This document shows positions 6,711-59,100 of a DNA stretch of 64,000 bases, in pieces. The notes under the pieces were generated by a model, which had not been told where the DNA came from, searched no databases, and saw only the letters and a program-made list of their open reading frames with translations. This stretch comes from Squalus acanthias (lineage: Eukaryota): assembly GCA_030390025.1 (NCBI GenBank), contig JASTWF010000495.1, forward strand, positions 248,001 to 312,000. Direction: 5' to 3'. Position numbers and translations under genes: made by a program. The number at the start of each line of letters is the position of its first letter. Within the stretch, counting starts at the first letter, position 1.

Positions 6711-6711
6711 A

Positions 6712-8740
6712 TCATAAAATGATACAACATAGAAGGAGGCCATTGGGCCCATCGTGCCTGTGCCGGCTCTTTGGTCGAGCTATCCAGTTAATCCCACTGC
6801 CCTGCTCTTTCCCTATAGCCCTGCACATTTTCCCCTTCAAGTATTTATCCAATTCTCTTTTGAAAATTACTATTGAATCTGCTTCCACCGCCCTTTCAGG
6901 CAGTGCAGTCCAGATCACAACAACTCGCTGCTTAAAAAAACTGTCTTCTCATCTCCCCCCTGGTTCTTTTGCCAATTATCTGAAATCTGTTTGCTCTGGT
7001 TACTGACCCTCCTGTCAGTGGAAGCAGTTTCTCCTTATTTACTCTCACACCTCGATCAAATCTCCACTTAACCTTTTCTGCTCTAAGGAGAACAACCCCA
7101 GCTTCTCCAGTCTATCCCCGTAACTGAAGTCCCTCATCCCTGGTACCATTCCAGTAAATCTCTTCTGCCCCCTCTCCTAGGCCTTGACATCCTTCCTATA
7201 GTGTGGTGTATTGAACACAATACTCCAGCTGGGGCCTAACCTGTCTTTATAAAGGTTGAGCATAACTTCTTGCTTTTACATTCTATTCCTCTATTAATAA
7301 AGCCAAGGATCCCATCTGCTTTTTAACAGCCTTCTCAACTTGTCCTGCTCCCTTCAAAGATTTGTGTCCATGCACCTCATGTCTCTCTGTTCCTGCACCC
7401 CCTTTAATTTTGTACCATTTAGTTCATATTGCCTCTTCCTACCAAAATGTATCAACTCACACTTCTCTCTGTTAAATTTCATCTGCCATGTGTCTGTCCA
7501 TTTCACCAGTCTGTGTGTGCTCCTGAAGTCTGTTACTATCCTCCTCATTGTTCACTACATTTGAGTTTCGTGTCATCTGCAAACTTTGAAATTATCCCCT
7601 GTTTTGCCAAGTGTGAGGTGATACATTTTGGTAGGAAGAATGAGGAGAGACCATACACACTAAACAGTACAATTTTAAATGGAGTGCAAGAACAGAGAGA
7701 CCTGGGGGTACTTGCGCATAAATCTTTGAAGGTGGCAGGACAGGTTAACACAGCAGTTAATAAACCACATGGGATCCTGGGCTTCATAAATAGAGGCAGA
7801 GAGTACAAAAGCCAGGAAGTTCTGCCAAACCTGTATAAAACGCTAGTTCGGCCCCAGCTTGTGTCCAATTCTGAGCACCACACTTTTGGAAGGACATGAC
7901 GGCTTTGGAGACGGTGGAGAGATTTACTATAATGGTTCCAGGGATGAGGGATTACAGTTCCGGGGACAGACTAGAGAAGCTGGGTTGTTCTCCTTGGAGC
8001 AGAGAAGGCTAAGAGGAGATTTGACAGGTGTTTAAAAGCATAAAGGATTTAGATGGAGTAAATAAAGAGAAACAGTGCTGAGAGGTTGTTTCCCCTGGCT
8101 GGCGAGTCTAGAACTAGGGGGAATAGTCTCAGGATAAGGGGTCGGCCATTTAAGACTGAGATGAGGAGGAATTTCTTCACTCAGAGGGTTGTGAATCTTT
8201 GCAATTCTCTACTCCAATGGGCTGTGGATGCTGAGTCATTGAGTGTATTTAAGGCTGAGATAGATTTTTTGGACTCTAGGGGAATGAAGGGATCTGGGGA
8301 TCTGGCGGGGAAGTGGAGTTGAGATCGAAGATCAGCCATGATCTCATTGAATGGCGGAGCAGGCTCGAGGGGCCGTATGACCGACACCTGCTCCTAATTC
8401 TTATGTTCTTAGTTTCCAATGGCTGAAGGCTCGATCACGAGAGGGCACAGATTTAAGGTGATTGGCAAAAGAACCAGAGGCGACATGAGCAAAAACATTT
8501 TTACGTAACGTGTGGTTAGGATTTGGATTGCTCTGCCTGATAGGGTGGTGGATACAGATTCATTGTAGCCTTCAAAAGGGAACTGGATACATACTTGAGG
8601 GGAGAGAATTGCAGGGATATGGGGTACGAGCGGGGCAGTGGGACTAACTCGATTGCTCTTTGAAAGAGCCAGTGCAGACTCGATGGACCGAATGGCCTCC
8701 TTCTGTGATGTACTACTGAGATTCGATTCTATGAAACAAC
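6712..8740. mobile_element. Cluster of nested and inverted CR1 fragments
   Basis: [20 protein letters not shown] and FFTQRVVNLWNSL motifs; minus strand 6712-7600, plus strand 7605-8740. Confidence 0.88.
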
Positions 8741-9482
8741 CCCTCTGACAGTGCAGCGCTCCCTCCGTACTGCCCCTCTGACAGTGCAGCACTCCCTCAG
8801 TACTGCCCCTCTGACAGTGCAGCACTCCCTCAGTACTGCCCCTCTGACAGTGCAGCACCCCCTCAGTACAGCCCCTCTGACAGTGCAGCACCCCCTCAGT
8901 GTTGCCCCTCTGACAGTGCAGCACTCCCTCAGTACTGCCCCTCTGACAGTGCAGCACCCCCTCAGTACTGCCCCTCTGACAGTGCAGCACCCCCTCAGTA
9001 CTGCCCCTCTGACAGTGCAGCACCCCCTCAGTGTTGCCCCTCTGACAGTGCAGCACTCCCTCAGTACTGCCCCTCTGACAGTGCAGCACCCCCTCAGTAC
9101 TGCCCCTCTGACAGTGCAGCACTCCCTCAGTACTGCCCCTCTGACAGTGCAGCACTCCCTCAGTGTTGCCCCTCTGACAGTGCAGCACTCCCTCAGTACT
9201 GCCCCTCTGACAGTGCAGCACCCCCTCAGTACTGCCCCTCTGACAGTGCAGCACTCCCTCAGTACTGCCCCTCTGACAGTGCAGCACTCCCTCAGTGTTG
9301 CCCCTCTGACAGTGCAGCACTCCCTCAGTGTTGCCCCTCTGACAGTGCAGCACTCCCTCAGTACTGCCCCTCCGACAGTGCAGCGCTCCCTCAGTACTGC
9401 CCCTCCGACAGTGCAGCGCTCCCTCAGTACTGCCCCTCCGACAGTGCAGATCTCCCTCCGTACTGCCCCTCCGATAGTGCCA
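8740..9482 (+). repeat. 33-bp minisatellite (CCCCTCTGACAGTGCAGCACTCCCTCAGTACTG)n, ~22 units
   Basis: Tandem repeat with an 11-aa period in the ORF track; only ~5-6 units at the paralogous site 58360-58540. Confidence 0.97.
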
Positions 9483-11283
9483 ATAAAATGTCCACGAATG
9501 GCCTACTCCTGCTCCTATCTTCTATGTTTCTATGTTTAAGACGCTCCTTAAAACCCACCTCTTCGACCAAGCTTTTAGTCTCTGTCCTAAAATCTCCTGA
9601 TGTGGTTCGGTATACGCTCCTGTGAAGAACCTTGAGGCGTTTTACTACGTTAAAGGAGCTAAATAAATCCAAGTTGTTGCTGAGCTGCCTGGATTTGCCC
9701 AGTGCTGGGAGACAGACCTGGAATCGCTTCTCTATTTACTGTACAGCTGACTCTGTGCAACCCTCAGATTTGATGTACTTGTGCTGCACAATGTTTAACC
9801 AGGCTCCACAATTCAGGGTTTGCAGCACTGTCCCCAGATTTAGAAAGCATTCATCGAAAGATCAAATAAAGGAGTAATTGTGCTGGGGATTGAAAAACGT
9901 CTCGTACAAAGCTGCTGTAAAAGGGAGGTGAGAATGTGGGACTGTGTCATGGAGTTCGTGTATCTGGGAAGTAGAAGGCGGCCTGATGCGGGTTACAGTT
10001 GTTAGGTGTGGGGTTATAGAAAGGTCCTAAGTGCGATATATATGGCGCCGACTGAGTTTCGCAGAATGTGCAAAGACTCGAATCCATTGCACAAGGGAGC
10101 TGCTGCCCCTGGATCCGCAGTGACCCCATCGTGAACTGTCTCCAGGACCCCATTTGCTCTTTGCTCTCTGACCCTGAGGAGCAAACAAAAGCTCGAGGCG
10201 TGTGTCAGGACAGCAGTAATATCAGCAACCCGAGTTTTAAACATGGCCGGAAATTCTCTGCAGTATTAAATTGCATTGCTTAATTTTAGATCCTAGAATT
10301 GTCTTTCTGTATGAACCTAATTCTAACCCAGGAGACGATTTCCTCTGTGCATTGTGCTCAAGGAGATCCCAAACCCGCTCATAAGTGCGGATTTACCATC
10401 TCACTAGTGTGAATTTTCCTCTCAGTTGCCAAATATCTATTTCAACATAAATAAAAGTGAGCTGGTATATTTTAGTTTGAGGAATAAGGAGGCCACATAC
10501 TGCTTGCAAAATAAGAGTCTAAATGGGGTAGAGCAGCAAAAAGATCTAAAGTAAACACTCACAGATCAGTAAAAGTAGCAGCGCAAGTTAACAAAGCCAC
10601 ACAAAGTGCAAACAAAGCACTGGGATTCATTTCTAGAGGAATAGAATTCTAAAGCAGAGAGGTTATGTTAGACTTGTATTGAACCTTGGTTAGATCACAT
10701 TTAGAGTTCGGTGCACAGTTATGGTTCATATTATAAAAAGGAAGTAGAGGCATTGGAGAAAGGACAAAACAGATTCAAAAGGATGATCCCAGACCGGAGA
10801 GGTTATAACTCTCAGGAATGTCTGAGCAGACTGGGGCTCCTTTCTCTAGAAAGACTGAGAGGAGCCCTTTTAGAGGTCTTTAAAATTCTGAAGGGATTCG
10901 ATAGAGCAGACATGGAGAAGATGCTTCCAGCAGCAGATCTGGTGGGACAAGACCCCCAGTGTCGGAGACAGGATAAAACAGGAAGCTTCAACAATAATTG
11001 TAAAGGTGAGGAACTCTACTGAGAATCCCATCAGTCCAGGGTTTTGCTGAGGTGAGAGTCTAACCAGCTACTGGGAGCTGTTCAACATCTGCCATCAGGC
11101 TCCGTCTTTGATGCAGCCAGTTGATCAGAGCTTAACTTGTATGTAAACTTTGGCTGTGCTTGGTGAACCAATTTAGAGAGAGCTTTTAGACTGTATCCAC
11201 CCCATGCTGTACCTGACGTGGGAGTGTTTGATGGGACAGTGTAGAGGGAGCTATCTCATGATTGCCCATGATGTCCTCTCCAA

Positions 11284-12360
11284 TTATTTCTCTGATGGTC
11301 CCAACACTTGATAACCCCGATGATCGCTCCTCTTATGGCTTTTGACGCCTGTACCTGTTACAGGGAATAGACTGGTTTCAGAAAACAGAGGTTGCTTAAC
11401 CCCTGCCTTATCCCAACACCATTCCCTCAAATTGATTCTCACTGTCGAAGCTGTTGGGAGGCACGGTGCCTGATATAAAGAGAGGGGAGACTTGGAAGTG
11501 TATAAAGCAAGAGTTGGACATGGGGGCCATTGAATAGTGGGTCCTCATATTTGGAGAATGGGAGGGAGAATTCGTAAGGGGTAATTTTGGGAGTCTGTGC
11601 TCCCTGCCTGGAGTCTCCGTACATGGGAGCGGGTTCGGAGACAGGACTGATTGTACAACCTGCGTTCATGCCCAGTGAGACTGTACATCAGGAGCAGGGT
11701 GTGGTCATGTGACCTGGTAATACATGGATTGGGAGGGGCTTGGGCTGCTTTGTGACATCGTTCCTGGCTGCTGTTGTGATTGGCTTGTGGCTCCTTTGTG
11801 ATGTCACCTGGAGACAAGTTTACGCCCCTGGTTACACATCAGCGGGATGTCACTGTGGGAGGAGCTGGAGTCGGCAGCAGTCTGGCGAGTGAGTTTAGTC
11901 CCTGTAAATAGGGGCAAGGAAAGAAAAGAACAATTTAATAGTAAAGTCAGTAATTCAACTAAATGTCATTAATTGTAAATATATTGAACTGATCATAGTC
12001 ACAAAAACAATCCCACTGTATCCCAGTTACAGATTGTAAAATTAATCTTTTTTATATTACCAGTTTCTTGGAGTGAGCAATATCTCTGGAAGGTGGAGAG
12101 AGAGAAGTCGAATCATCACCACACTAACTGGGACTGGAGAAATGTCACTGGGTTCACAGAGCAGATCTGGTGGGACAAGACCTCCAGTGTCGATGACAGG
12201 ATAAAACGGGAAGCTTCAACAATGATTGGAAAGGTAAGGAACTCGACTGAGAATCCCATTAGTTCAGGATTCAGAGCTGAGAGTCTAACCAGATACTGGG
12301 AGCTGTGCAACATCTGTCATAAGGCTTGGACTTTGATGCGGCATTTGACCAGAGCTTACC
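11284..12360 (-). pseudogene. Two-exon remnant of an unidentified multi-copy gene
   Basis: Donor CTG|GTAATA at 12060 and a strong acceptor TTCTTTTCTTTCCTTGCCCCTATTTACAG at 11902 define a ~160-bp intron; the mostly open frame ends ...NYPLRILPPILQI*. Homologous pieces at 90-440, 10925-11140, 18525-19180, 19440-19800 and 61715-63150. Confidence 0.45.
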
Positions 12361-12825
12361 TCGTACATAAACCTTACCCGCACCTCACCTGGGAGTGTTT
12401 GACACCTACATGTAGAGGGATTTTTATTCTGTATTGATCCCATGCTGTGCCTGAGCTGGTGCACTTCATTGGGTAGTGTAAAGGGAGCTGTACACTGCAC
12501 TGAACACATTCTGTATCTGAGTTGGCTGTGCTTGGTGAACTAATTTAGAGGGAGCTTTTCTCTATCTAACCCGTGCTCTGCGAGTGTTTGATGGGACAGT
12601 GTAGAGGGAGCTTCACTCTGTATTCAACCCGTGCTGTACCTGCCCTGGGACAGTTTGATGTGACTGTGTAGCGGGATCTTTTCACTCTATCTAACCCGTG
12701 CTCTACCTGATCTGAGAGTTATTGATGCAACAATGTAGAGGGAGCTTTACTCTTTATCTAACCCGTGCTGTACCTTCCCTGGGATTGTTTGATAGGACAG
12801 TGTTAGAGGGTTATTTACAGTATAC

Positions 12826-25755: not shown

Positions 25756-25802
25756 TCAGGCATTGGCGGAGGAGCTGCAGGAGGATTCCCCTTGATTAGA
25801 AG
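25756..25802 (-). CDS. MHC-I exon 7, Ser-rich tail TSNQGESSCSSSANA-stop
   Basis: Acceptor TTAACAG, in frame with exon 6; the TGA is followed 1 nt later by donor G|GTATGA. Lies beyond the N gap, so linkage to the upstream exons depends on the scaffold join. Confidence 0.78.
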
Positions 25803-28800
25803 CTGTTAATGGAAGGACAGGCATTAATAAACTGTTCATTGTCATAGAGAGAGAGAGAGCGAGACAGAGAGAAATAGAGAGACAGAAGGAGGGAGACAGA
25901 GCCAGAAAAAGAGAGACAGAGCCAGTCACAGAGTGAGAGACAGAGCCAGAAACAGAGANNNNNNNNNNNNNNNNNNNNNNNNNNNNNNNNNNNNNNNNNN
26001 NNNNNNNNNNNNNNNNNNNNNNNNNNNNNNNNNNNNNNNNNNNNNNNNNNNNNNNNNNNNNNNNNNNNNNNNNNNNNNNNNNNNNNNNNNNNNNNNNNNN
26101 NNNNNNNNNNNNNNNNNNNNNNNNNNNNNNNNNNNNNNNNNNNNNNNNNNNNNNNNNNNAGACAGTCACAGAGAGAGAGAGAGAGAGACAGAGACAGAGA
26201 GCCAGACAGACAGAGGGAGACACAGAGTAATAAACTGTTCAGTGTATCAGACACAGAATGAGCAACGATTCAGTGTTCCAGAGATGCAGAGGATGTTTGA
26301 TGATCAGCTTACTGGTTGTAGGATTGTAGCCGCTCTTCCCTCCCACTGTAAAACAAGGAACGCTCAGTGAGTGACGAGACACCGACAGTCAGAGAAGAGA
26401 GAGGATCACCCCCCAACGTGGCTCTGCCCACCCAGAGCCCCAGCCCCGCCCCCTCCCCCAGATCCTCTCGCCCTCACCCAGAGCCCCTCCCCCCTAACCC
26501 AGAGCCCCAGCCCCTCACCCTGGGCCCCTTCCCCTCACCCAGAGCCCCTCCCCCTCACCCAGAGACCCGCCCCCTCACCCAGATCCTCTCGCCCTCACCC
26601 AGAGCCCCGCCGCCTCACCCAGAGCCCCTCCCCCACACCCAGAGCCCCTACACCTGGGCCCTTCACCCTCCAGCCCAGTACACTTCCACCCACCACCGGG
26701 CCATCCCCCTGACACTGGGCCCCTGCCCCCCCCTTAAAGGACCCCGCCACCTCCAACCTGGCCCCTCCTCCCAATCCAGGCCCCTCCCTCCCTCCCCCAG
26801 TGGGGACGCGACCATTTTGTCTCCATTTCCTACCTTTCTTTCTGTAGATGACGACAGCTACAATGGTGAGAGCGATGAGCAGCCCGAGGACCCCAATCAC
26901 ACCAACAATAGCAGGGACCATGGACTCAGACTTCGGTACTGAGAGAGAGAGAGAGTGAGAGAATCAGAGACAGACAGGGATACACCGTGTCCTCATACTG
27001 TAATATCCCAAAATACACCGTGGACTGTAATATCCCAGGATCCACCGTGGACAGTAATATCCCAGGATCCACCGTGGACTGTAATATCCCAGGATCCACC
27101 GTGGACTGTAATATCCCAGGATCCACCGTGGACTGTAATATCCCAGGATACACCGTGGACTGTAATATCCCAGGATCCACCGTGGACTGTAATATCCCAG
27201 GATCCACCGTGGACTGTAATATCCCAGGATCCACCGTGGACTGTAATATCCCAGGATCCACCGTGGACTGTAATATCCCAGGATCCACCGTGGACTGTAA
27301 TATCCCAGGATCCACCGTGGACTGTAATATCCCAGGATCCACCGTGGACTGTAATATCCCAGGATCCACCGTGGACTGTAATATCCCAGGATCCACCGTG
27401 GACTGTAATATCCCAGGATCCACCGTGGACTGTAATATCCCAGGATCCACCGTGGACTGTAATATCCCAGGATCCACCGTGGACTGTAATATCCCAGGAT
27501 CCACCGTGGACTGTAATATCCCAGGATCCACCGTGGACTGTAATATCCCAGGATCCACCGTGGACTGTAATATCCCAGGATCCACCGTGGACTGTAATAT
27601 CCCAGGATCCACCGTGGACTGTAATATCCCAGGATCCACCGTGGACTGTAATATCCCAGGATCCACCGTGGACTGTAATATCCCAGGATCCACCGTGGAC
27701 TGTAATATCCCAGGATCCACCGTGGACTGTAATATCCCAGGATACAGCGGCTCGATAAATGCTGTGATGACATGAACATGTTGAAAGTTAATAATTCTTC
27801 CGCTCTCTCTGTAGCCTGACTCCAACCTGTCCCGGGCTGGGAGCTCAGCACTGACCCTCCCTCCTGTGGGCTTGTCCCGGGCTGGGAGATCAGCACTGAC
27901 CCTTCCTCCAGTGGGTCTGTCCCGGGCTGGGAGCTCAGCACTGACCCTCCCTCCTGTGGGCCTGTCCCGAGGCTGGGAGCTCAGCACTGACCCTTCCTCC
28001 AGTGGGTCTGTCCCAGGCTGGGAGCTCAGCACTGACCCTTCCTCCAGTGGGTCTGTCCCGGGCTGGGAGCTCAGCACTGACCCTCCCTCCTGTGGGTCTG
28101 TCCCAGGCTGGGAGCTCAGCACTGACCCTCCCTCCTGTGGGTCTGTCCCGGGCTGGGAGCTCAGCACTGACCCTCCCTCCTGTGGGTCTGTCCCGGGCTG
28201 GGAGCTCAGCATTGACCCTCCCCCTTGTGGGTCTGTCCCAGGCTGGGTTCCCTCTAACAGTGAGAGAGAGTCTTACCATAAATCACCATCACCATCTCCT
28301 CCAGCCCACTGTGCTCCACCTGACAGGAATACTCAGCCTGGTCCTTGGGGTCAAACTCCACCCATTTCTGGATCTGGTAGGTGCTGTCGTGATTGGGCAG
28401 GATCCCACTGGACTGAGTCTCATCGACCAACATTCCATCTCTCCACAGAGTCACCTCGATGGCTTGAGGGTAAAACCCGGTGACGACACAGGAGAGCCGG
28501 TTAGCTTCCCCCGGACGGATAAAGGACACGATGGGTGGGACTGAGAGAGAAAGAAAGAGGATTTAGTATAGGAACCGCGATATCGAGAGTCACTGCACCT
28601 CACTCGCCCACTCTCAGTCCCCCCTCACTCTCAGTCCCCCCCTCACTCTCAGTCCCCCCCTCACTCTCAGTCCCCCCCTCACTCTCAGTCCCCCCCCTCA
28701 CTCTCAGTCCCCCCCCTCACTCTCAGTCCCCCCCCTCACTCTCAGTCCCCCCCTCACTCTCAGTCCCCCCCTCACTCTCAGTCCCCCCCTCACTCTCAGT

Positions 28801-31800
28801 CCCCCCCTCACTCTCAGTCCCCCCCTCACTCTCAGTCCCCCCCTCACTCTCAGTCCCCCCCCTCACTCTCAGTCCCCCCCCTCACTCTCAGTCCCCCCCT
28901 CACTCTCAGTCCCCCCCTCACTCGCCCACTCTCAGTCCCCCCTCACTCGCCCACTCTCAGTCCCCCCTCACTCGCCCACTCTCAGTCCCCCCTCACTCGC
29001 CCACACTCAGTCCCCCCTCACTCGCCCACACTCAGTCCCCCCTCACTCGCCCACTCTCAGTCCCCCCTCACTCGCCCACTCTCAGTCCCCCCTCACTCGC
29101 CCACTCTCAGTCCCCCCTCACTCGCCCACTCTCAGTCCCCCCTCACTCGCCCACTCTCAGTCCCCCCTCACTCGCCCACTCTCAGTCCCCCCTCACTCGC
29201 CCACTCTCAGTCCCCCCTCACTCGCCCACTCTCAGTCCCCCCTCACTCGCCCACTCTCGGTCCCCCCCTCACTCGCCCACTCTCGGTCCCCCCTCACTCG
29301 CCCACTCTCAGTCCCCCCTCACTCGCCCACTCTCAGTCCCCCCTCACTCGCCCACTCTCAGTCCCCCCTCACTCGCCCACTCTCAGTCCCCCCTCACTCG
29401 CCCACTCTCAGTCCCCCCTCACTCGCCCACTCTCAGTCCCCCCTCACTCGCCCACTCTCAGTCCCCCCTCACTCGCCCACTCTCAGTCCCCCCTCACTCG
29501 CCCACTCTCAGTCCCCCCTCACTCGCCCACTCTCAGTCCCCCCTCACTCGCCCACTCTCAGTCCCCCCTCACTCGCCCACTCTCAGTCCCCCCTCACTCG
29601 CCCACTCTCAGTCCCCCCTCACTCGCCCACTCTCAGTCCCCCCTCACTCACCCACTCTCAGTCCCCCCTCACTCACCCACTCTCAGTCCCCCCTCACTCA
29701 CCCACTCTCAGTCCCCCCTCACTCACCCACTCTCAGTCCCCCCTCACTCACCCACTCTCAGTCCCCCCTCACTCACCCACTCTCAGTCCCCCCTCACTCA
29801 CCCACTCTCAGTCCCCCCTCACTCACCCACTCTCAGTCCCCCCCTCACTCACCCACTCTCAGTCCCCCCCTCACTCACCCACTCTCAGTCCCCCCCTCAC
29901 TCACCCACTCTCAGTCCCCCCTCACTCACCCACTCTCAGTCCCCCCCTCACTCACCCACTCTCAGTCCCCCCTCACTCACCCACTCTCAGTCCCCCCTCA
30001 CTCACCCACTCTCAGTCCCCCCTCACTCACCCACTCTCAGTCCCCCCCTCACTCACCCACTCTCAGTCCCCCCTCACTCACCCACTCTCAGTCCCCCCTC
30101 ACTCACCCACTCTCAGTCCCCCCTCACTCACCCACTCTCAGTCCCCCCTCACTCACCCACTCTCAGTCCCCCCTCACTCACCCACTCTCAGTCCCCCCCT
30201 CACTCACCCACTCTCAGTCCCCCCTCACTCACCCACTCTCAGTCCCCCCTCACTCACCCACTCTCAGTCCCCCCTCACTCACCCACTCTCAGTCCCCCCT
30301 CACTCACCCACTCTCAGTCCCCCCTCACTCCCCACTCTCAGTCCCCCCTCACTCACCCACTCTCAGTCCCCCCTCACTCACCCACTCTCAGTCCCCCCTC
30401 ACTCACCCACTCTCAGTCCCCCTCACTCACCCACTCTCAGTCCCCCCTCACTCACCCACTCTCAGTCCCCCCTCACTCACCCACTCTCAGTCCCCCCCTC
30501 ACTCACCCACTCTCAGTCCCCCCTCACTCACCCACTCTCAGTCCCCCCTCACTCACCCACTCTCAGTCCCCCCCTCACTCACCCACTCTCAGTCCCCCCC
30601 TCACTCACCCACTCTCAGTCCCCCCTCACTCACCCACTCTCAGTCCCCCCTCACTCACCCACTCTCAGTCCCCCCTCACTCACCCACTCTCAGTCCCCCC
30701 TCACTCACCCACTCTCAGTCCCCCCTCACTCACCCACTCAGTCCCCCCTCACTCACCCACTCTCAGTCCCCCCTCACTCACCCACTCTCAGTCCCCCCTC
30801 ACTCACCCACTCTCAGTCCCCCCTCACTCACCCACTCTCAGTCCCCCCTCACTCACCCACTCTCAGTCCCCCCTCACTCACCCACTCTCAGTCCCCCCTC
30901 ACTCACCCACTCTCAGTCCCCCCCTCACTCACCCACTCTCAGTCCCCCCTCACTCACCCACTCTCAGTCCCCCCTCACTCACCCACTCTCAGTTCCCGCT
31001 GCCCGTACTGCAGGTATTTCCTCAGCCACTCGATACACTCCTCCTCCAGGTAATTCTTCCACCGCAGTTTGCCGCCTGTGTCCTGGTCCCACTTGTTCTT
31101 GATGCTCTGTGCCCATGGGACTGGAGTGACCCACACCAGGTGATCCTTGTCGAAGCTGATGTAGTCTCGCCCGTCCCAGCCGAACTGGACAAACCCGCTC
31201 GTGGTCCCATCGTCCCTCAGGTCACAGCCAATCATCACCTGGTACGTGTGGATCCCTGTCAATCAAACACACACACAGCCAATCAGACCCAGTCCCACCG
31301 GGAGACCCGCCCCACTGTCCCTCAGCTGGTCAGACACACCTGGGAAGCAGGCGGTATTTAAAGGAACCCCCAACCCTGGTTCCAGATCTGTGCATTTAAA
31401 GGACCCCCGGAACCCGAGCTATGAACTAAAAACACCGAAAACCAATCTGCATTCTAAAAACTAAAGACATTGATGTCTAATAAAAGGAACCAAAGAACAT
31501 GGTATATAAATTTGAAGGACCCCCCAATTCCTGATCTAAATATTTTCGGGGCCTCCACCCCCACCCCTCGGTTCCTGATCTGTGTATTTAAAGGACTGAT
31601 GTGAGGCCGCTCCCCATTGGTCGCTGCCCCTGGTCTGGGAGATGGAGTGCCTCTTTTCCCGGGGACCCTGGCTCCCTGAGCTCGCTCCACTCCACAGCTC
31701 GCTCCCCATTCCCACCCGGCCACCCTCAACCCAGAGAAAGAGCCCGACCGTGGCGGGAGGGCGAGGACTCACCTCCCGACTGAATGGTCCGGGTCATGAG

Positions 31801-34120
31801 TTGCTGAATATAGGCCTTCTGATACACCTCCCGTTCCCGCACCAGCTGAAATTTCCGCTCCCAGGACTCGGGCCCCTCACTCTCCACCATCCACTGCTCC
31901 CGCGGGATCAACTCCTTCCGATCGCTGTCGTACGTAACAAACTGGACCTCGTCCACATACCCGACACCCACAAACTGCGGCAGACCGGGAATTGGAGTTA
32001 TGGTGGTAAGGAAATACCGGAGAGAGTGAGAGCCTGAAACACAGAGAGAGAGAGAGATATCAGGGCATGAACCCCAAAACACCAACCCCACCCACACACA
32101 CACAGACATAAGGGTATGAACCCCAAAACACCAAACAAAAACGCACACGGACATCAGGGCATGAACCCCAAAACACCAACCCCACACTCAGTGGACTCAG
32201 GGCATGAACCCCAAAACACCAACCCCCACACTCAGTGTGACATCAGGGCATGAACCCCAAAACACCAACCCCCACACTCAGTGTGACATCAGGGCATGAA
32301 CCCCAAAACACCAACCCCCACACTCAGTGTGACATCTGGGCATGAACCCCAAAACACCAACCCCCACACTCAGTGTGACATCAGGGCATGAACCCCAAAA
32401 CACCAATCCCACCCCCGAAACCAACAGACAGAGAGAGATAGACATTCAGGGCCCTCAACACTCCTGATGAGTCCCGTGTCCTACAATCTCCCTCCCCGAT
32501 CCCTGATCAGGGACTCCGAGGCCCACCCGTTCCTCCTCCAGACCCCCGCGACCCAACCCCATCCCTTACTGTAACCTGGAGCACTGACCTGCGCGGCCTC
32601 CTCCTGAGGTGCCATCTCCAGTGCACTGGGGTCCGAGGCCAAGAATCCGCGGGCTTCTCAGACCTCAGTGTTTGAGCGCGGGTTGTAACACAGTGTTGGG
32701 GGCGGGGGGCTCCCGAGGTTAACCCCAGACACTTGTATATCTCAGTTTGCTGACGACACTAAGTCAGGTGACCCAGTAAATTGTGTAGACGGGGGCAGCA
32801 AGTTGCAAAGGGTCATTGAGAGAGTAAGTGAGCGGGCAAAACTGTGGCAGATGGACCTCAATGTGGGCAACTGAGAGCTCATCCACTTTGGAGCTAAGAA
32901 AGTCAATCTGAATATATTCCACATGGTGGGAAACTCTGACCTGTGGAGGAGCACATGGAGAAATCATTAAAAGCCAGTGGACAGGTACAATAAGGATTGG
33001 GAAAAGCTCATGGAATGTTGGTCTTTATCTCGAGGGCTGGAATACAAGGGCTGGAAGTTCTGTTACAGCTGGACCACTCTCTGGTTAGACCCTATCTGGA
33101 GTAACTGTGTTCAGATCTGGGCATCGCACCTCAGGAAGGAGAAACTGGCCTTGGAGGGAATCCAGCGCAGATTCACCAGAGTGATACCGGGGCTTAGAGG
33201 GTTGAATTATGAGGACAGGTTGCATAGACTCGGCTTGTATTCCCTTGAGTATAGAAGATTGAGGGGGAATCTAATTGAGGTGTTTAAAATGTTACAAGGA
33301 TTTGATAGAATCAATCTGGGGAAACTAGTGCCTCTGGTGGGTGAATCAGGAACGAGGGGACAGAATCTTAAAATTAGAGCCAGACCGCTCAGGAGCGGAA
33401 TCAGGAAGCACTTTTACACACAAAGGGTAGTGGAAATCTGGAACTGTCTGCCCCAAAAGGTGTGGATGCTGGGGCTCAACTGGAGCTTTCAGACCTAAGG
33501 TCGATGGATTTATGTTAGGTCAGGATATCAGGAATATGGAGCAAAGGCAGGGAAATGGAGTTAAGATACAAATCAACCAGGATCGAATTGAATGGCGGAA
33601 CAGACTCGAGGGGCTGAATGCTCTACTCCTGTTCCTGTGGACCTCTCTCTCCACTCTCCAGCCCACTGCCCCTGTCCCTCACTCCCCGCCATGGTCTCTC
33701 TCTCTCCAGCCCCAGTACCCAGCCTGGCACTGAGACCCTCTCACACCCCATTACTCACTGACCGAGGGTTAATGCCCAGTACCCAGCCTGGCACTGAGAC
33801 CCATTCACACCCCATTACCCACTGACCGAGGGTTAATGCCAGTACCCAGCCTGGCACTGCCCCTCTCACACCCCATTACTCACTGACCGAGGGTTAATGC
33901 CCAGTACCCAGCCTGGCACTGAGACCCTCTCACACCCCATTACTCACTGACCGAGGGTTAATGCCCAGTACCCAGCCTGGCACTGCCCCTCTCACACCCC
34001 ATTACTCACTGACCGAGGGTTAATGCCCAGTACCCAGCCTGGCACTGCCCCTCTCACACCCCATTACTCACCTGCAGAGACCCCTCCACACAGAAGGGCC
34101 AGCACTATCAGTCCAATCAT
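25756..34120 (-). CDS. MHC class I heavy (alpha) chain, probably non-classical; spliced CDS join(34072-34120, 31773-32033, 30983-31255, 28277-28540, 26834-26938, 26313-26345, 25756-25802), 343 aa
   Basis: Exon lengths 49+261+273+264+105+33+47 = 1032 nt, in frame, with GT-AG phase-1 introns. Leader, a1 (GSHSLRYF), a2 (C..C, DGRDYI, KNKW, YLEEECIEWLRKYL), a3 Ig-C1 (LSCVVTGFYP...YSCQVEH), TM and cytoplasmic exons follow canonical class I organisation. Lineage (UAA/UBA/UDA etc.) not assigned. Confidence 0.95.
25959..26159. other. Assembly gap (~200 N) inside a GA-rich microsatellite in MHC intron 6
   Basis: Run of N flanked by (GA/GACA)n. Confidence 0.99.
26313..26345 (-). CDS. MHC-I exon 6, 33-nt cytoplasmic exon (VGGKSGYNPTT)
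   Basis: Acceptor TTTTACAG, donor GTAAGC; same 33-nt length and conserved Tyr as exon 6 of mammalian class I genes. Confidence 0.85.
26410..26675 (+). repeat. Imperfect ~19-20-bp C-rich repeat (CCCTCACCCAGAGCCCCTC) in intron 5
   Basis: Degenerate tandem units visible directly. Confidence 0.8.
26834..26938 (-). CDS. MHC-I exon 5, connecting peptide and transmembrane segment
   Basis: VPKSESMVPAIVGVIGVLGLLIALTIVAVVIYRKK; acceptor CTCTCAG, donor AAG|GTAGGA. Confidence 0.92.
26975..27745 (+). repeat. 27-bp minisatellite (CCAGGATCCACCGTGGACTGTAATATC)n, ~28 near-identical units, intron 4
   Basis: Tandem repeat; each unit has a BamHI site and the interrupted palindrome TCCAC-C-GTGGA. Confidence 0.98.
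27825..28250 (+). repeat. 45-bp minisatellite (CTGTCCCGGGCTGGGAGCTCAGCACTGACCCTCCCTCCTGTGGGT)n, ~9 units, intron 4
   Basis: Tandem repeat with a 15-aa period in the ORF track. Confidence 0.95.
28277..28540 (-). CDS. MHC-I exon 4, alpha-3 Ig C1 domain
   Basis: VPPIVSF...LSCVVTGFYPQAIEVTLWRDG...ILPNHDSTYQ...YSCQVEHSGL; pyrimidine-rich acceptor, donor ATG|GTAAGA. Confidence 0.96.
28598..30993 (+). repeat. 24-bp minisatellite (CCCCCTCACTCACCCACTCTCAGT)n filling intron 3
   Basis: Three sub-domains: ~15-16-bp units (28615-28920), ACTCGC variant (28920-29640), ACTCAC variant (29640-30993). The last unit overlaps the exon 3 donor. Confidence 0.98.
30983..31255 (-). CDS. MHC-I exon 3, alpha-2 domain
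   Basis: GIHTYQVMIGCD...GWDGRDYISFDK...KNKWD...YLEEECIEWLRKYLQYGQRELRV; both cysteines present; acceptor GACAG, donor TGG|GTGAGT. Confidence 0.96.
31773..32033 (-). CDS. MHC-I exon 2, alpha-1 domain
   Basis: GSHSLRYFLTTITPIPGLPQFVGVGYVDEVQFVTYDSD...PESWERK...LMTRTIQSG; acceptor GTTTCAG, donor GAG|GTGAGT. Confidence 0.96.
32056..32415 (+). repeat. ~45-bp minisatellite near the intron 1 acceptor
   Basis: (CATCAGGGCATGAACCCCAAAACACCAACCCCCACACTCAGTGTGA)n, ~8 units. Confidence 0.93.
32740..33640 (+). mobile_element. Degenerate CR1 3' portion in MHC intron 1, antisense to the gene
   Basis: FADDTK; LEGIQRRFTRVIPGLRGLNYEDRL; HFYTQRVVEIWNCLP. Confidence 0.9.
33705..34071 (+). repeat. ~60-bp minisatellite abutting the exon 1 donor, ~6 units
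   Basis: (CCCTCTCACACCCCATTACTCACTGACCGAGGGTTAATGCCCAGTACCCAGCCTGGCACTG)n. Confidence 0.95.
34072..34120 (-). CDS. MHC-I exon 1 coding part, signal peptide MIGLIVLALLCGGVSA
   Basis: ATG in context ACAATG (A at -3), hydrophobic core, donor CAG|GTGAGT; the final G joins GC of exon 2 to give GSHSLRYF. Confidence 0.9.
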
Positions 34121-34315: not shown

Positions 34316-34370
34316 CTATATTAAACCAGCAGATGTTCCTGGGCGCTCAGACACCTCCGTACTGATTGGT
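34316..34370 (-). promoter_or_regulatory. Core promoter: CCAAT box (34365-34369) and TATA-like TTTAATATAG (34316-34325)
   Basis: Motifs ~200-250 bp upstream of the ATG in the expected order; TSS inferred near 34290. Confidence 0.55.
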
Positions 34371-34494: not shown

Positions 34495-34536
34495 CCAATC
34501 AGAGAAATACTGCTAGGCACGTCATCAGTTGCCAGG
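34495..34536 (-). promoter_or_regulatory. X1-X2-Y module (RFX / CREB-ATF / NF-Y) of the MHC promoter
   Basis: Minus strand reads CCTGGCAACTGATG-ACGTGCCTAGCAGTATTTCT-CTGATTGG: X1 box, overlapping TGACGT (CRE-like X2), and Y box 20 bp after X1. Confidence 0.8.
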
Positions 34537-34584
34537 CAGGATGAGCTGAACTGAAATAAGTTTGATGCAGAAAGTGACAGAGGG

Positions 34585-50191: not shown

Positions 50192-53100
50192 GATTCAGAC
50201 GCACAGTGTGTGCGAAGGGGTTTAATTTATCCTGCTGTTTGTTGTGACATCAGCAAATCCACCCTGGGGAGACCACTTGAGTTGTACTGTGTGTGAAATG
50301 AAATTTGACACATCTGGTTAGCTGCCACACCCGTGAATTGACACCAGAGAGAAACTGTTGAATGGACTGGATTCACAACTGTCCCTGTTTCACTGAGATT
50401 CATAGAGTGAAACCAACTAAAAGCACTTAAGGTTTGCAGTAATTTGATGTTTAGAATGGCTTCCTCTGCTGCAGTAACTGTGCCAATGAAGTTGATTATA
50501 TCACTGCTCACAATCTCACGGCACAATATCGCACTTTGTCCCTTTCACTTTCTGTGAAGTACAGATTAAGTGTCGGCTAAAAACATTGTATTTCCACAAG
50601 GGAGAGTGTAATTATAGGAACAGGAGTCGGCCACTTAGCCCCTCGAGCTGTTCCGCCATTCAGTGAGATCCTGGCTGATCTGTGACCTAACTCCATATAC
50701 CCGCCTTTGCCCATATCCCTTAATACATTTAGTTAACAAAACTATGTCAATCTCAGATTTAAATTTAACAATTGAACGAGAATTAATAGCCATTTGCGGA
50801 AGAGAGTTCCAAACTTCTACCACGCTTTGTGTTTAGAATTATTTCCTAACTTCGCTCCTGAAAGGCCTCCCCAAGCAGTGGAAATGGTTTCTCTCTATCT
50901 ACCCTATCAGCAACGCTCCCTCAGTCCCGACAGCCTGGGACCGGTTTCTTCAGTGATAAATTTTGCGTGTGTGTGAAACTGAGACTGGGCCGCACACCCA
51001 AAAAATTAGGCGGAACATTGCCTCTCGCTTCCCCTTAATATCTTGAAAACTTCGATCAAATCACCTCTGAACCTTCTAAATTCCAGAAATACAACCCGGG
51101 TTTGTGAAATCTCTCCTCGTAATTTAACCCTTAGAGACCAGGAATCATTCTGGTCAATCTACGCTGCACTCCCTCCAAGGCCAATATATCCTTCCTAAGG
51201 TGTGGTGCCCAGAACTGCTCCCAGAACCCCAGGTGTGGTCTAACCAGGGCTCTGTATAGCTGCAGCATAACTTCTACCCTAATAATAGATTCAAAGAAAT
51301 TCTAGTACATCGGGAGGCCACCCTTCTAGCTCAGTAACTGGGACCCTTTCACTCCAATCCCGTATTCCTCTTTTCCAAATGTCGATATTACAAGTTTGGG
51401 TCTGCTGTTCGATATTCTCTCGAGTACAGCGGTGCTCATCTCTCCTGTAAGCGGTCAGCGCCTTACGTTTAGGACTGTGTCCTCGCTGCCCGATGTCTAA
51501 TTATACAATAGTGTAGCCCCCAAGTGTAACATTAACACCCCCTTGTGGTCTGAACCAGATATCCGAGTCTTTTGTAGATGCCTCTCCAATCTTCCCACAG
51601 AGGTGCTGCAAGAACACTTGGGAAAATGCAAATCGATAAACTGCATTGGTTCACAGTGAGCGAACATACAGAGCAACAGTTCCAATGGGACTCCCTTCAA
51701 TCAGTGCAATGTGCCCACGTATTAACATCGAATAACCAACATGCTATGCTGCCCTACAGCAGTGGGTGTCTTGCTTGAGTTAAACCAAATTACTTAATTC
51801 CTAACCCTCAGAGTCTCAGTAAGAGCCCTCATAGTTCATAGAATCATAGAATGTTACAGCAGAGAAGGAGGCCATTCGGCCCATCGTGCCTGTGCCGGCT
51901 CTGTGCAAGAGCTATTCATAGTCCCACTCCCTGGCTCTGTCTCCACAGCCCAGCAAATCTTTCCCTTCAAGTATTGATCCAATTCCCTTTTGAAAGTTAC
52001 TATTGAATCTGTTTCCACCGCCCTTTCAGGCAGCACATTCCAGATCACAACAACTCGCTGTGTATTTTTTTTCCCCTTGTCGCCTCTAGTTTTCCCTTTT
52101 TAAAAACCTGACTGCCAACCTGTGGGTCTTTGTACTCTTGTCTCCTGTCCATCAGGAAGTTGATGCTTGGTTCGTGATTCTTCCTCATGTCCAGGGGTGA
52201 GTTCGAGAGCAGGAAGCTCACAGCAGGTCAGTCAGCATCGATGGAGAGATCAGAAAAGTTAATGTTTTGGAGCTCCTGAAATGGCAGCTTTTCCGTTCTC
52301 TCCACCCCACTGATGCTGAGTGACAGGTTGTGTTTCCAGCATTTTCTGTTTCTTGTTTGAAGCTGCTGAATCAAGGCTGCTGCTGTGCCTCTCTCCATCC
52401 CTCCCCATTTTGAAACCAGCTTCATGTAAAGCTCCACAGGAAGGGCCATTCCAACACGGCATGGTGGGAATGTTTCTTTGGAGTCCCCAAGTTGAGATCG
52501 TGACTCTCCTCTTGTTCCCAATCATCATGGGCAACAGATTTAATGTCTGACTCTTTAATGTATTTTCTGTAAATACCTATAGCCTTTCTTTTAAAATCTG
52601 TGTGGATTCACTTTCTTTTAGAATCCAGCACTTAAAACACAACTCTTTTCCAATCGTATCTGTGGAAAAATCATCAAAAAGTGTTAAAATGGGACTTTGG
52701 AACAGGCCATTCGGCCCCTTGTGCCTGTTCCACCATTCTGTGAGATCATGGTTGATCTGGACCTCAACTCCATTTACCCACCTTTTCACCATCTCCCCTG
52801 ATATCCTTACCCAGAAACATCTGTCAATCTCAGTCTTGGAAATTTCAATTGACCCCCAGCAACCACAGCCTTTTGGGGAGAGAGTTCCAGATTTCCACAA
52901 CCCTTTGTGTGAAAAAGTTCTTCCTGATTTCACTCCTGAATGGCCAAGCTGTAATTTTAAGATTTTGCTCCTTGTTTTGGTTTCTCTGTATCTACCCGAG
53001 CGAATCCTATTATCATTTTTAACACTTTGGTTGATCCCCCCTCAAGCTTCTAAACTCGGGCGAATACAAACCGAGTTTCTGTAACCTGTCCCCATAATTG

Positions 53101-56100
53101 AACCCTTTAAATTCTGGTGAATCTGCGCTGCCCCCCCTCCAAAGCCCAGATATCCTTCCTGAGGTGCGGTGCCCAGAATCCATCCTATTCCCCGATCAGT
53201 GCTTTTATAATCTCTGCCCCAACAATCACCCCTTGCAGAGCATTCCGTATCTTTGGAGAGGCTGGAGAAGCTGGGATTGTTATCATTAGAGCAGAGAAGG
53301 TTAAGGGGAGATTTGATAGAAGTGTTCAAAATGCTGAGGGGTTTTGAGAGAGTAAATAAGGAGAAACTGTTTCCACTGACAGGAGGGTCAGTAACCAGAG
53401 CTCACAGATTTCAGATAATTGGCAAAAGAACCAGGGCGGAGATCAGAAGACAGTTTTTTACGCAGAGAATTGTTGTGATCTGGAATGCACTGCCTGAAAG
53501 GTTGGTGGAAAAAGATTTAATCGTAACTTTCAAAAGGGATTTGGATAAATACTTGAAAAGGATAAACTTTCAGGGGAGTGGGACTAATTGGAGAGCTCTT
53601 TCAAAGAGCCAACACTGACACGATGGGCCGAATGGCCTCCTTCAGTGCTCCATGATCTCAATGAAAAGTTTTCTCCAACTTTCCCCTCCTTGTTCCCCTG
53701 CCAAACCTGAGCCGATGCACTTCTATTACAGCCTCACCGACTAATGTAACAATCCCTTGCCACCAACCCCCACAGAACTGTATAAATCGCTGAGGTTCCC
53801 CAGTAAGAAAAGCCCCAATTCTTTCAGCCATTCTTTATACTGTGTTCAGCTTGGATTCACAATCTTCATCTAGCCCTGTGTGTCCTGATCTCTCTCTCTC
53901 TTGAGCTGATTTATTGGTTGTATTCCAGTATAACCGGAACAACCTGTCCAAAATCATAAAGGATAGCTGATGGAGTTTTATATTTTATATCTGTATTCTT
54001 TCCATCCAGATTATGCCATTGGCAATACCGGACTCGGATGGTTATATTATTTAATAGATCGACAGGGATGTATCCCTGTATTGTTTGTTCTAATGATCTG
54101 CTCCAGATGTTTACTATCTGTTGTTGATTCACTAGGTGTACACGGTCTCGAGGCAATCAATTGCTCACATCTACTTGTTTCTCAGTTATAACAATCAGGA
54201 AAGGATGAACAGGCTGGGCCTTTTTTTTCTTCAAAAGATGAGGCTGAGGGTTGACCGAATAGAGGTGTTTAAAATTCTGAAAGATTTTGATAGATTAGAC
54301 AGAGAGAGTGTTTTCACTTGTGGGGAAGAGCAAAACTAGAGGCCATCAATATAAGATAGTTACCAAGAAAGCAAATAGGGAATTCAGAAGAAACTGCTTC
54401 ACCCAGAGAGTGGTGAGAATGTGGAACTTGCTACTGCGAGGAGTAGTTGAGGGGAATAGTATAGACGCATTTAAGGGGAAGCTAGATCAGTATATGAGGG
54501 AGAAGGGAATAGAGGGTTCTGCTGATAGAGTTAGATGAGCAAGGCTGGGAGGAGGCTCGAGTGGAGCATCAATGCTGGCATGGCCTGGTTGGGCCGAATG
54601 CCCTGTTTCTGTGCTGTATATTCTATGTAATTCTATTCTGGCCAGAGTTTTTAAGTCCACAATAGTCTCGATTTCTTCCAGAGCCAGTCCTATGATGTCC
54701 TGCGCCACCTCCCGACTGTCCGTATAGCCTCTCTGGGGATATTTTTAAATTTGTCTTCCTGAATTTCCAAATCCTTAACTGATGGGGTATTCCAACCAGT
54801 TGCTGTACCGAATCCTCCCATTCCCAACTTGTCTCATAGGGACCTTTTCCTTCCCTTCTCACTCTCTTCCTCCTCTGGATCATTCTGTGGTTCCTTACAG
54901 TCCAGGGCATGTTTTTTATATCCGTGCAGTAGATTGGCAAATTCCCAGTCCGGGATCAAGGTTTGTTCTTGGATCCTGAATTCAAAGAATCCTTGCTTGA
55001 ATTCTTGAAATTGATTGTTGTTTACTTCTTCTTCCCCAGTTCTCCTGCCACAGTACCTCGAAGTCTGAGCTTCCCTTCATACTGCAGTATCTTGTCTTAT
55101 GATCAAACTTTGGCAGACCGGTCCAATTGGTCTGGACTATCGGTGCCCATTTTTGTAAATCAATGACCAGTGGTTTTACCACATATTATACATACTGAAT
55201 TATAATACATAATACTCCTGGGTCAGGACTCCCCAATCAGTGGGCCAAATTTTATTTCTGGTCAGTTGCTTACCACTTTCGCATTGTCTCTTTGATAAGG
55301 TTTTGTTTGGTCCACATGGTCCCACTTACCCTCCATTTGTCATTTGGTGTCCTTAGTTCTAACCGTTTGGACCCAATGTCTCCATTACTGTGAACGGTGC
55401 TCTCCACTTGGGATACAGTGAGTGGGAAGGATTACCGAACCATTTTAACAGAACCTTATCACCAGCTAGGTACAAATACTCCATATGTGTAAGTTCCTGG
55501 TTTCCTTTTATTGTATCAGCAGCCCTTCCCAATTGGTGGGCCATCCACCCATTCATTTCCCAGATGAATGACAGACTCGGTTTGATCAACTACTCCCTTC
55601 AGAGAGTCCGACAACCCCTCGTACATGAGGTGCTCTGGGCGTCTCGTACTTCGCCCCGTCATTAGGGTCTCAATCCCAGAGCGCAGCAAGGAGTGGATCT
55701 GCTGGCCAGCGAGGCTAATGGCAACTTCACATCCCAATCCCTGCCATTTATTGCTCCAAATTTTCTGGAAATTATTTATAAAGTGCAGTTTGCTCTTTCC
55801 ACTGTCCCTGGTGACTGTGTAAATTGTGGAACTGGTTTTATGTCCAACAAATTCATGCATTGATCCATGACCTCTTTTGGCGAACCTCACTGAGTGGTTT
55901 ATTGTCCTACCAGAGCTTTAGCAATGGGGATAGCTTGCACCCATTTCGAAAACTAATCCGCTCCAAGTAAAATATATTTGTTTCCTATTGCGGTTGTAGT
56001 TTAAGGTTCTATCCAATCAATTTGTAATGAGCACCATGGTCCCTGTTTTAGTCGGGTCACAGGGTGGGTGGGGTTCCTTTATTTTGTAGTGATCATATTT

Positions 56101-59100
56101 ACATGGGCACGTGTGAGACATTGGTTCCAGCGTATTGTTCCATTCATTGCCATTTCTGGCCAACAGCCCAAGTCTCTCACCCACTGTAAGGTTTTCACTG
56201 CTGTTCAGCTGTTGAGGCATTGTGAGCTGTGTCCAGTAATATGGCCCAACTCTCTCAACCCTCCTTCGCTATTGGCAAATGGGTTGTATGGAACGCAGTT
56301 TCTTGTTCTACGGTCAACTTATTGAAATCATAAAATGATACAACATAGAAGGAGGCCATTGGGCCCATCGTGCCTGTGCCGGCTCTTTGGTCGAGCTATC
56401 CAGTTAATCCCACTCCCCTGCTCTTTCCCCATAGCCCTGCACATTTTCCCCTTCAAGTATTTATCCAATTCTCTTTTGAAAATTACTATTGAATCTGCTT
56501 CCACCGCCCTTTCAGGCAGTGCAGTCCAGATCACAATAACTCGCTGCATGAAAAAACTGTCTTCCCATCTCCCCCCTGGTTCTTTTGCCAATTATCTGAA
56601 ATCTGTTTGCTCTGGTTACTGACCCTCCTGTCAGTGGAAGCAGTTTCTCCTTATTTACTCTCACACCTCGATCAAATCTCCACTTAACCTTTTCTGCTCT
56701 AAGGAGAACAACCCCAGCTTCTCCAGTCTATCCCCGTAACTGAAGTCCCTCATCCCTGGTACCATTCCAGTAAATCTCTTCTGCCCCCTCTCCTAGGCCT
56801 TGACATCCTTCCTATAGTGTGGTGTATTGAACACAATACTCCAGCTGGGGCCTAACCTGTCTTTATAAAGGTTGAGCATAACTTCTTGCTTTTACATTCT
56901 ATTCCTCTATTAATAAAGCCAAGGATCCCATCTGCTTTTTAACAGCCTTCTCAACTTGTCCTGCCCCCTTCAAAGATTTGTGTCCATGCACCTCATGTCT
57001 CTCTGTTCCTGCACCCCCTTTAATTTTGTACCATTTAGTTCATATTGCCTCTTCCCACCAAAATGTATCAACTCACACTTCTCTCTGTTAAATTTCATCT
57101 GCCATGTGTCTGCCCATTTCACCAGTCTGTGTGTGCTCCTGAAGTCTGTTACTATCCTCCTCATTGTTCACTACATTTGAGTTTCGTGCCATCTGCAAAC
57201 TTTGAAATTATGCCCTGTATAGCCAAGTGTGAGGTGATACATTTTGGTAGGAAGAATGAGGAGAGACCATACACACTAAACAGTACAATTTTAAATGGAG
57301 TACAAGAACAGATAGACCTGGGGGTACTTGTGCACAAATCTTTGAAGGTGGCAGGACAGGTTAACACAGCAGTTAATAAACCACATGGGATCCTGGGCCT
57401 CATAAATAGAGGCAGAGAGTACAAAACCAGGAAGTTCTGCCAAACCTATACAAAACGCTAGTTCGGACTCAGCTTGTGTCCAATTCTGAGCACCACACTT
57501 TTGGAAGGACATGACGGCTTTGGAGAGGGTGGAGAGATTTACTATAATGGTTCCAGGGATGAGGGATTACAGTTCCGGGGACAGACTGGAGAAGCTGGGT
57601 TGTTCTCCTTGGGTCAGAGAAGGCTAAGAGGAGATTTGACAGAGGTGTTTAAAAGCATAAAGGATTTAGATGGTGTAAATAAAGAGAAACAGTGCTGAGA
57701 GGTTGTTTCCCCTGGCTGGCGAGTCTAGAACTAGGGGGAATAGTCTCAGGATAAGGGGTCGGCCATTTAAGACTGAGATGAGGAGGAATTTCTTCACTCA
57801 GAGGGTTGTGAATCTTTGGAATTCTCTACCCCAATGGGCTGTGGATGCTGAGTCATTGAGTGTATTTAAGGCTGAGATAGATTTTTTGGACTCTAGGGGA
57901 ATGAAGGGATCTGGGGATCCGGCGGGGAAGTGGAGTTGAGATTGAAGATCAGCCATGATCTCATTGAATGGCGGAGCAGGCTCGAGGGGCCGTATGGCCG
58001 ACACCTGCTCCTAATTCTTATGTTCTTAGTTTCCAATGGCTGAAGGCTCGATCACGAGAGGGCACAGATTTAAGGTGATTGGCAAAAGAACCAGAGGCGA
58101 CATGAACAAAAACATTTTTACATAACGTGTGGTTAGGATTTGGATTGCTCTGCCTGATAGGGTGGTGGATACAGATTTATTGTAGCCTTCAAAAGGGAAC
58201 TGGATAAATCCTTGAGGAGAAAAAATTGCAGGGATATGGGGTGCGAGCGGGGCAGTGGGACTAACTCGATTGCTCTTTCAAAGAGCCAGTGCAGACTCGA
58301 TGGACCGAATGGCCTCCTTCTGTGATGTTCTACTCTGTGATTCTATTCTATGATACAGCCCGTCTGACAGTGCAGCGCTCCCTCAATACTGCCCCTCTGA
58401 CAGTGCAGCACTCCCTCAGTACTGCCCCTCCGACAGTGCAGCACTCCCTCAGTACTGCCCCTCTGACAGTGCAGCACTCCCTCAGTACTACCTCGCTGAC
58501 AGTGCAGCACTCCCTCAGTACTGCCCCTCCGACAGTGCAATAAAATGTCCACGTTTACTTACAGTATTGAACCTGTGGATTTCAATCTCTTCCTTTCACT
58601 TTGGGTACACTGTAAATTTTAATAAATATTTATTTTCTGCCACTTTTTTCTCCTCCTCGTGTTGTAGTATCAAATGTTGTTTGAAAGTCCCTGCAGCAAG
58701 GGGTCCTGAGAGACGGGAACTATCTGGGTGGGACTGCACTCGCCTGGTTCCATTCTTATCTATCCAGTCGTAGACAGAAAATCACCTGCAATGGCTCCTC
58801 TTCCTGCTCCTGCACCGTTACTTCTGGAGTCTCCCAAGGATCTATCCTTGGCCTCCTTCTATTTCTCATCTACATGCTGCCCCTCGGCAACATCATCCCA
58901 AAACACATCAAGTTCCACATGTACGCTGACGACACCCAGCTTTACCTCACCACCACCTCTCCCAACCCCTCCACAGTCTCTAAATTGTCAGACTGTCCGA
59001 CATCCAGTATTGGATGAGCAGAAATTTCCTCCAACTAAATATTGTGAAGACCAAAGACATTGACTTCGGGCCCCGTCACAAACTCCGTTCGCTCGCCACC

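Follow-up and report, generated by a model that had tools for sequence, protein, structure and literature searches.

A UBA-type MHC class I gene of Squalus acanthias with a private loss of the N86 glycosylation site

The window analysed here, a stretch of 64 kb of Squalus acanthias DNA, contains an intact MHC class I gene with seven coding exons on the minus strand (34120-25756). Judged from sequence comparison it belongs to the shark UBA class Ib lineage, and it adds a member to this known lineage, with one private quirk, the loss of N86. By the same comparison, its groove is ordinary for UBA and stands at the classical extreme of the UBA range, whereas the loss of N86 appears private to this copy and separate from the groove changes, not part of one design with them. 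UBA is a multicopy class Ib family (PMC10751288) derived from UAA (PMC12562908). Since it has already been described as a multicopy lineage, a further member is a routine addition.

The frame of 1032 bases is free of shifts and stops and encodes 343 residues, made up of leader, alpha1, alpha2, alpha3, transmembrane segment and tail, in agreement with Pfam; the mature chain has 327 residues. GT donors and AG acceptors are present throughout the exons. In a tblastn search with four relatives, the window yielded no class I gene besides this one. A sequence-only reading had pointed to the interval from 32033 to 30983; the alpha1 exon begins precisely at the former position, and the alpha2 exon ends at the latter. 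The parts of the gene are as follows.

34072..34120, minus strand: exon 1, signal peptide, 16 codons and 1 base, with GT donor; 16 of 17 residues match O19480
31773..32033, minus strand: exon 2, alpha1 domain; PF00129, top PDB match 6LUP (E 4.5e-27)
30983..31255, minus strand: exon 3, alpha2 domain with C101-C164; PF00129, top PDB match 6LUP (E 5.4e-33)
28277..28540, minus strand: exon 4, alpha3 Ig C1 domain; PF07654, top PDB match 6LUP
26834..26938, minus strand: exon 5, connecting peptide and transmembrane segment
26313..26345, minus strand: exon 6, cytoplasmic, with a Tyr motif found in UAA and UBA relatives
25756..25802, minus strand: exon 7, coding part, to the stop codon; tail collinear with O19480 and Triakis O46847
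23713..23718, minus strand: AATAAA, candidate polyadenylation signal

A leader exon at the nearer upstream ATG (32615-32570) was rejected, as it is not hydrophobic, and the one at 34120-34072 matches relatives. Also rejected was a pseudogene: the frame carries neither stop nor frameshift, every splice site is intact, and conserved residues are not lost in excess. The last intron holds an assembly gap of 201 N (25959-26159); since the tail is collinear with that of relatives, no exon appears to be missing there. The tail exon carries a cysteine, mature C321, that none of the 13 displayed relatives has at this position. Among the matches of the homology searches, the best of which had 77% identity over alpha1 to alpha3, the protein of the gene itself was absent.

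Lineage and groove

For the phylogeny, the Squalus gene was aligned with 95 named proteins of chondrichthyans along with five outgroups, excluding four fused models, one unnamed match and the other bony-vertebrate matches. Nine chondrichthyan rows were dropped because they were short, misaligned or duplicates (P0017, P0020, P0026, P0035, P0040, P0064, P0072, P0074 and P0257), leaving 86. In the IQ-TREE analysis of 92 rows, the gene is found inside a 44-row clade together with P0029 (support 100/96). The alpha1 to alpha3 letters of P0029 (O19479) are, compared by eye, those of the entry Gcirratum_UBA_AAC60347 in the supplement of PMC10751288. This clade was delimited after the FastTree result was known, and further tests were added for that reason. 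Single-domain trees from which columns 59, 63, 86 and 143 had been removed recover it with SH-aLRT values of 98, 96 and 93 for alpha1, alpha2 and alpha3, respectively. In AU tests on a 26-row subset, grouping the Squalus gene with four UAA-type rows was rejected (p-AU 5.3e-6); the gene does not cluster with Gici-UAA and Triakis O46847, as a class Ia gene should. A UBA clade excluding the gene was not rejected (p-AU 0.187), so it may represent an early UBA branch, possibly near the sawshark sequence P0002. The latter (Pristiophorus) is the earliest-branching UBA row and is without a transmembrane segment, which would make it an isoform or a secreted form.

A phylogeny against the described shark lineages, which the sequence-only reading had suggested, hence places the gene in UBA and not in UAA, in trees without UCA, UDA, UEA, UFA and UGA. 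In the supplement alignment of PMC10751288, UCA, UDA, UFA and UGA are, by eye only, far less alike to it than UBA or UAA, and a search of this supplement for a labelled UEA sequence gave 0 matches. The elasmobranch UBA sequences in the clade (nurse shark Gici-UBA AAC60347/O19479; horn shark O19480) share with the Squalus gene a residue other than Tyr at 59, K63 and I143, and also the layout of leader, transmembrane segment and tail. Horn shark UBA members are 76-77% identical to it. Identity to Gici-UBA is 178/264 (67%), to Gici-UAA 154/266 (58%). Gici-UAA*01 (6LUP) has the same domain layout and beta-2-microglobulin face as the Squalus gene but differs by Y59, E63, N77, the N86 sequon and T143.

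That the gene might be a divergent classical UAA allele is hardly credible. It keeps six of the peptide anchors, and 6LUP is the best PDB match for each domain, but in the PDB searches nothing came nearer than 6LUP, at 53-61% per domain, so that the top match is just the nearest solved relative; tree and AU test reject this placement, and all eight anchors are kept in 26 out of 40 non-UBA rows.

Residue numbers are those of HLA-A2. They were checked against nurse shark UAA 6LUP (Y59, N86 sequon, T143) and, by eye, against the alignment of HLA-A2, UAA and UBA in the supplement of PMC10751288. The list of eight peptide-anchoring residues is that of PMC4364491. Reading the codons on the minus strand bears out every residue named in the sequence-only reading: Y7, R84 (codon CGG), K146, W147, Y159 and Y171 are present, and positions 59 and 143 are Ser and Ile. 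W60, Q96, G120, D122 and both disulfides (C101-C164; mature C196 and C251 in alpha3) are likewise retained. W167 is also kept, and K63, Y77 and I99 had not been listed. The positions that matter here are the following.

32016-32014, minus strand: Y7, codon TAT
31864..31866, minus strand: S59, codon TCC, Tyr in classical class I; change common to the whole UBA lineage
31852..31854, minus strand: K63, D/E/Q in classical class I; UBA-diagnostic
31783..31785, minus strand: I86, codon ATT, abolishes the N86 sequon; private change
31101..31103, minus strand: I143, codon ATC, where classical class I has Thr; change common to the lineage, with Ile in 35 of 43 UBA rows

With six out of eight anchors kept, and K63 in addition, the gene departs from the classical set of eight that marks UAA as class Ia. 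To separate shared from private changes, 43 UBA rows were counted against 43 other shark and ray rows, with denominators varying with coverage. Y59 is kept in 0 of 43 UBA rows versus 39 of 42 non-UBA rows, T143 in 2 of 43 versus 42 of 43, and K63 is found in 38 of 42 versus about 1 of 42. As Y59 and T143 are nearly universal outside UBA, their loss is meaningful, yet within UBA it is the rule. The sequence-only reading had taken the groove for a non-classical one. Its altered A and F pockets and its class Ib character stand; as a new feature it does not, because the changes to S59 and I143 are marks of the lineage. Twenty UBA-diagnostic columns were derived here from the 43 versus 43 rows, not taken from a paper, and the Squalus gene matches 17 of them, including K63, L66 and I143. 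Seven residues are absent in the 43 UBA relatives: T11, F62, Q72, Q78, I84, E190 and Q221 (mature numbering). Almeida 2020, Almeida 2021 and Bartl 1997 may already describe the UBA groove residues.

Among the 34 UBA rows spanning all eight anchors, six keep 6, 13 keep 5, 15 keep 4 or fewer, and none keeps more than 6. The exact pattern of the Squalus gene is shared by P0011, P0012, P0013 and P0015. K146 is present in only 6 of 43 UBA rows and W147 is also variable; binding of peptide C-termini need therefore not be a general property of the lineage. Compared with its UBA relatives, the Squalus gene retains both K146 and W147, and it lacks the N86 sequon and any other.

The missing glycosylation site

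The sequence-only reading had further noted that the N86 sequon is replaced and that no N-X-S/T occurs in alpha1 to alpha3. This proved correct and extends to the whole mature chain, in which all seven Asn residues lie outside sequons. The change is real in the assembled sequence, rare, and one base from the norm, as ATT is a single base away from an Asn codon. UBA rows have Asn86 in 39 of 43 cases, the other rows in 43 of 43. The described lineage in which the gene clusters therefore shares its changes at 59 and 143 but not the one at 86; with 39 of 43 UBA relatives keeping N86, the loss of the glycan is separate from the groove changes of the lineage, and the glycan-free state is not a lineage property.

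The four other UBA genes without Asn86 are from Mustelus (P0028 and P0196, both Q) and Heterodontus (P0057, K; P0203, G). Their losses are separate from that in Squalus, and each has one or two ectodomain sequons elsewhere and fewer anchors than the Squalus gene. On the tree, parsimony needs four changes for the loss of the N86 sequon, the Squalus gene included. In total the sequon is missing from the N86 column in 6 of 86 rows (in one, P0258, by uncertain alignment), and all six have a site elsewhere. A wholly sequon-free ectodomain was found in 0 of these 86 near-complete shark and ray rows, which are cluster representatives, with alleles lying outside the sample. Two of the dropped rows count against the uniqueness of the Squalus gene. 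The partial P0072 (Pristiophorus, no alpha2) is without N86 and has no sequon in the part present; P0257 has Asn at position 86 but no sequon there.

Could I86 be a base error of the assembly, and the gene an ordinary glycosylated UBA? One wrong base would suffice, N86 is the sole conserved column that is broken, and the assembly contains both the 201-base gap in the last intron and near-identical duplicated segments. However, the 1032-base frame is clean, the 23% of differences from the nearest relative mean that true changes are inferred to far outnumber expected errors, and position 86 is changed in 4 of 43 other UBA genes. We regard such an error as very unlikely.

A greater share of probability, although well short of an even one, goes to the loss being a neutral or mildly harmful allele or copy variant, with poor folding and weak surface display, drifting in a birth-and-death array. 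The single-base distance between ATT and an Asn codon fits this, as does the multicopy nature of UBA (PMC10751288), with a 97% identical repeat bracketing the gene. Removal of N86 lowers surface HLA-A2 (PMC6859791), and each of the six further rows in which the N86 sequon is missing carries a site elsewhere. Against it, there is no other decay: among 70 columns conserved at 90%, N86 is the only broken one, where the UBA median is 2, and the gene thus does not look decayed; its branch length is 0.19 versus a median of 0.15, its splice sites are intact and a promoter-like module is present. Most likely, one copy of a multicopy family has lost the glycan and the change is tolerated. Provided that I86 is real and the gene expressed, it would provide the only wholly sequon-free ectodomain in the set (0 of 86 others) and a natural counterpart of engineered N86 mutants. 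The engineered HLA-A2 variants N86Q and S88R likewise are without the N86 glycan; they are human and classical and serve as a model for the consequence, not as relatives.

Proposed pairing, ligand and loading

The explanation which we consider probable overall is an intact UBA class Ib gene whose product, a membrane heavy chain, would pair with beta-2-microglobulin, likely hold peptides anchored at their C-terminus, have a reshaped N-terminal pocket and likely be loaded without calreticulin. Its parts differ in strength. Thirteen out of 16 positions examined in the beta-2-microglobulin face are identical to 6LUP; of the remaining three, two (G117 and G120) carry the residue most common in sharks. 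From these conserved positions the heavy chain is predicted, with high confidence, to pair with beta-2-microglobulin, through the class I interface described in PMC8236899. Together with S59 and I143, the contact face supports the earlier suggestion of a beta-2-microglobulin-binding class Ib molecule in which the A and F pockets are altered.

In classical class I molecules, the first peptide residue is held by Y7, Y59, D/E/Q63, Y159 and Y171 (PMC8236899), and in HLA-B8 with long peptides a displaced Y59 opens the A pocket (PMC10439229). As Y59 and D/E/Q63 build the bonding of the first residue, Ser and Lys at these places would weaken the hydrogen-bond net and bring a positive charge beside the amino group, while W167 would still cap the groove at its N-terminal end. 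The opposite end keeps R84, K146 and W147 but has lost T143, and its F pocket may be crowded by Y77. The N-terminal pocket would likely take extended or modified peptide ends, with the C-terminus held. The likeliest cargo would be a C-terminally anchored peptide with such a non-standard N-terminus, to which we assign slightly less than an even chance. A model of the catshark proxy P0012, which has the same 6-of-8 pattern, gives a class I fold nearest 6LUP (pLDDT 78) and is silent on pocket shape and on the Squalus glycan.

Across UBA, L45 (40 of 42 rows), L66 (38 of 42) and W156 (33 of 42) are conserved. With the nearly invariant K63, they are the best lead to the UBA ligand, and the signature of S/A59, K63 and I143 offers a concrete hypothesis on its pocket. 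One alternative is that the UBA groove binds a non-peptide ligand, such as a small acidic metabolite, a lipid head group or a lipopeptide, anchored by K63, and works in the manner of MR1 without being MR1. K63, L45, L66, W156 and I143 are conserved in UBA while the anchors erode to 0-6 of 8. MR1, a class Ib molecule with His instead of Tyr at 59, ranks high in both kinds of search: second to 6LUP when a UBA relative was compared by fold, and after 6LUP and Xenopus 6A2B in the alpha1 sequence search. Its rank, however, reflects about 39% general similarity, and the Squalus gene has Leu at both positions aligned with its R9 and K43, on which grounds membership in MR1 was rejected; by identity it is another lineage. 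(4LCW is the K43A mutant of MR1.) Furthermore, the Squalus gene keeps six anchors, the maximum seen in UBA, and its groove differs only modestly in net charge (+4 versus a UBA mean of +2.2 and +1.0 in others) and in hydrophobic count (21 versus 18.9 in UBA and 17.4 in others, over 32 hand-picked positions). A non-peptide ligand is accordingly unlikely in our view.

Regarding loading of the proposed peptide-binding molecule, calreticulin grips class I via the alpha1 glycan (PMC5824609), and in human cells non-glycosylated HLA-A2 prefers TAPBPR over tapasin and reaches the surface less well (PMC6859791). By analogy, a chain without glycan would offer no grip to calnexin and calreticulin, would bind the tapasin complex weakly, and would be loaded by a glycan-independent route such as TAPBPR, probably at the price of lower surface levels; we give this scenario about even chances. 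Since mammalian glycan-free HLA also has lower surface expression, rerouting and impairment of this copy fit equally well, and calreticulin-free loading would be compatible with either adaptation or handicap. The boldest combination, an expressed glycan-free heavy chain which bypasses calnexin, calreticulin and tapasin and whose Lys63 pocket binds N-modified peptides or a non-peptide ligand, is improbable. If true, it would provide a natural test of how class I is loaded when the N86 glycan is absent, and would open a way to the UBA ligand. A glycan-free UBA or a role of K63 was not found in the literature searched, a negative result that coverage gaps make weak.

Surrounding DNA

Three further features of the window lie outside the exons.

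34495..34536, minus strand: X-like box, CRE/X2 hexamer and inverted CCAAT (Y) box, with a spacing of 20 bases
558..12803, plus strand: left copy of a direct repeat of about 12 kb, in two blocks (97.3% over 8378 bp, 96.9% over 3277 bp)
50192..63595, plus strand: right copy of this repeat, about 50 kb downstream

The X-Y set lies 375-410 bases upstream of the ATG and was matched in 0 of 100 shuffles, with a pattern fitted after the site was seen. It is part of what is presumably a wider promoter-like set at 34317-34577, consisting of an ISRE-like octamer, X-like box, CRE hexamer, Y box, kB-like decamer, second CCAAT and TATA-like hexamer. The boxes at 34495..34536 likely form an X-Y promoter module; an X-Y spacing of 20-22 bp is given in PMC4374748 and agrees with the Squalus site. 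Positions 34312-34070 are matched at 43% by the N-terminal extension of the model P0039 from horn shark, suggesting conserved upstream DNA that was annotated as coding there.

The repeat pair that brackets the gene may be the sign of a unit duplicated in tandem, with further UBA copies beyond the window. According to PMC10751288, c4 and rxrb flank the UBA cluster. From the listing of open reading frames and from Pfam searches of nine non-MHC frames, the 64 kb showed no other recognisable host gene, TAP1/2 and PSMB8/9 included; classical UAA is linked to these four, in a class Ia region spanning 87 kb to 1.9 Mb. Among the nine frames, Pfam identified one reverse transcriptase and one weak GIY-YIG below the cut-off, and nothing in the other seven. 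The reverse transcriptase remnant (44642-45661) and the weak GIY-YIG match (21370-22011) look like retroelement debris, and the remainder of the window is minisatellites and apparent retroelement remnants. The introns at 26997-30997 and 32059-34071 are full of homogeneous minisatellites near the exon edges, among them a 25-mer repeated 84 times, an 18-mer 17 times, a 45-mer 9 times, a 27-mer 28 times, a 46-mer 8 times and a 64-mer 6 times.
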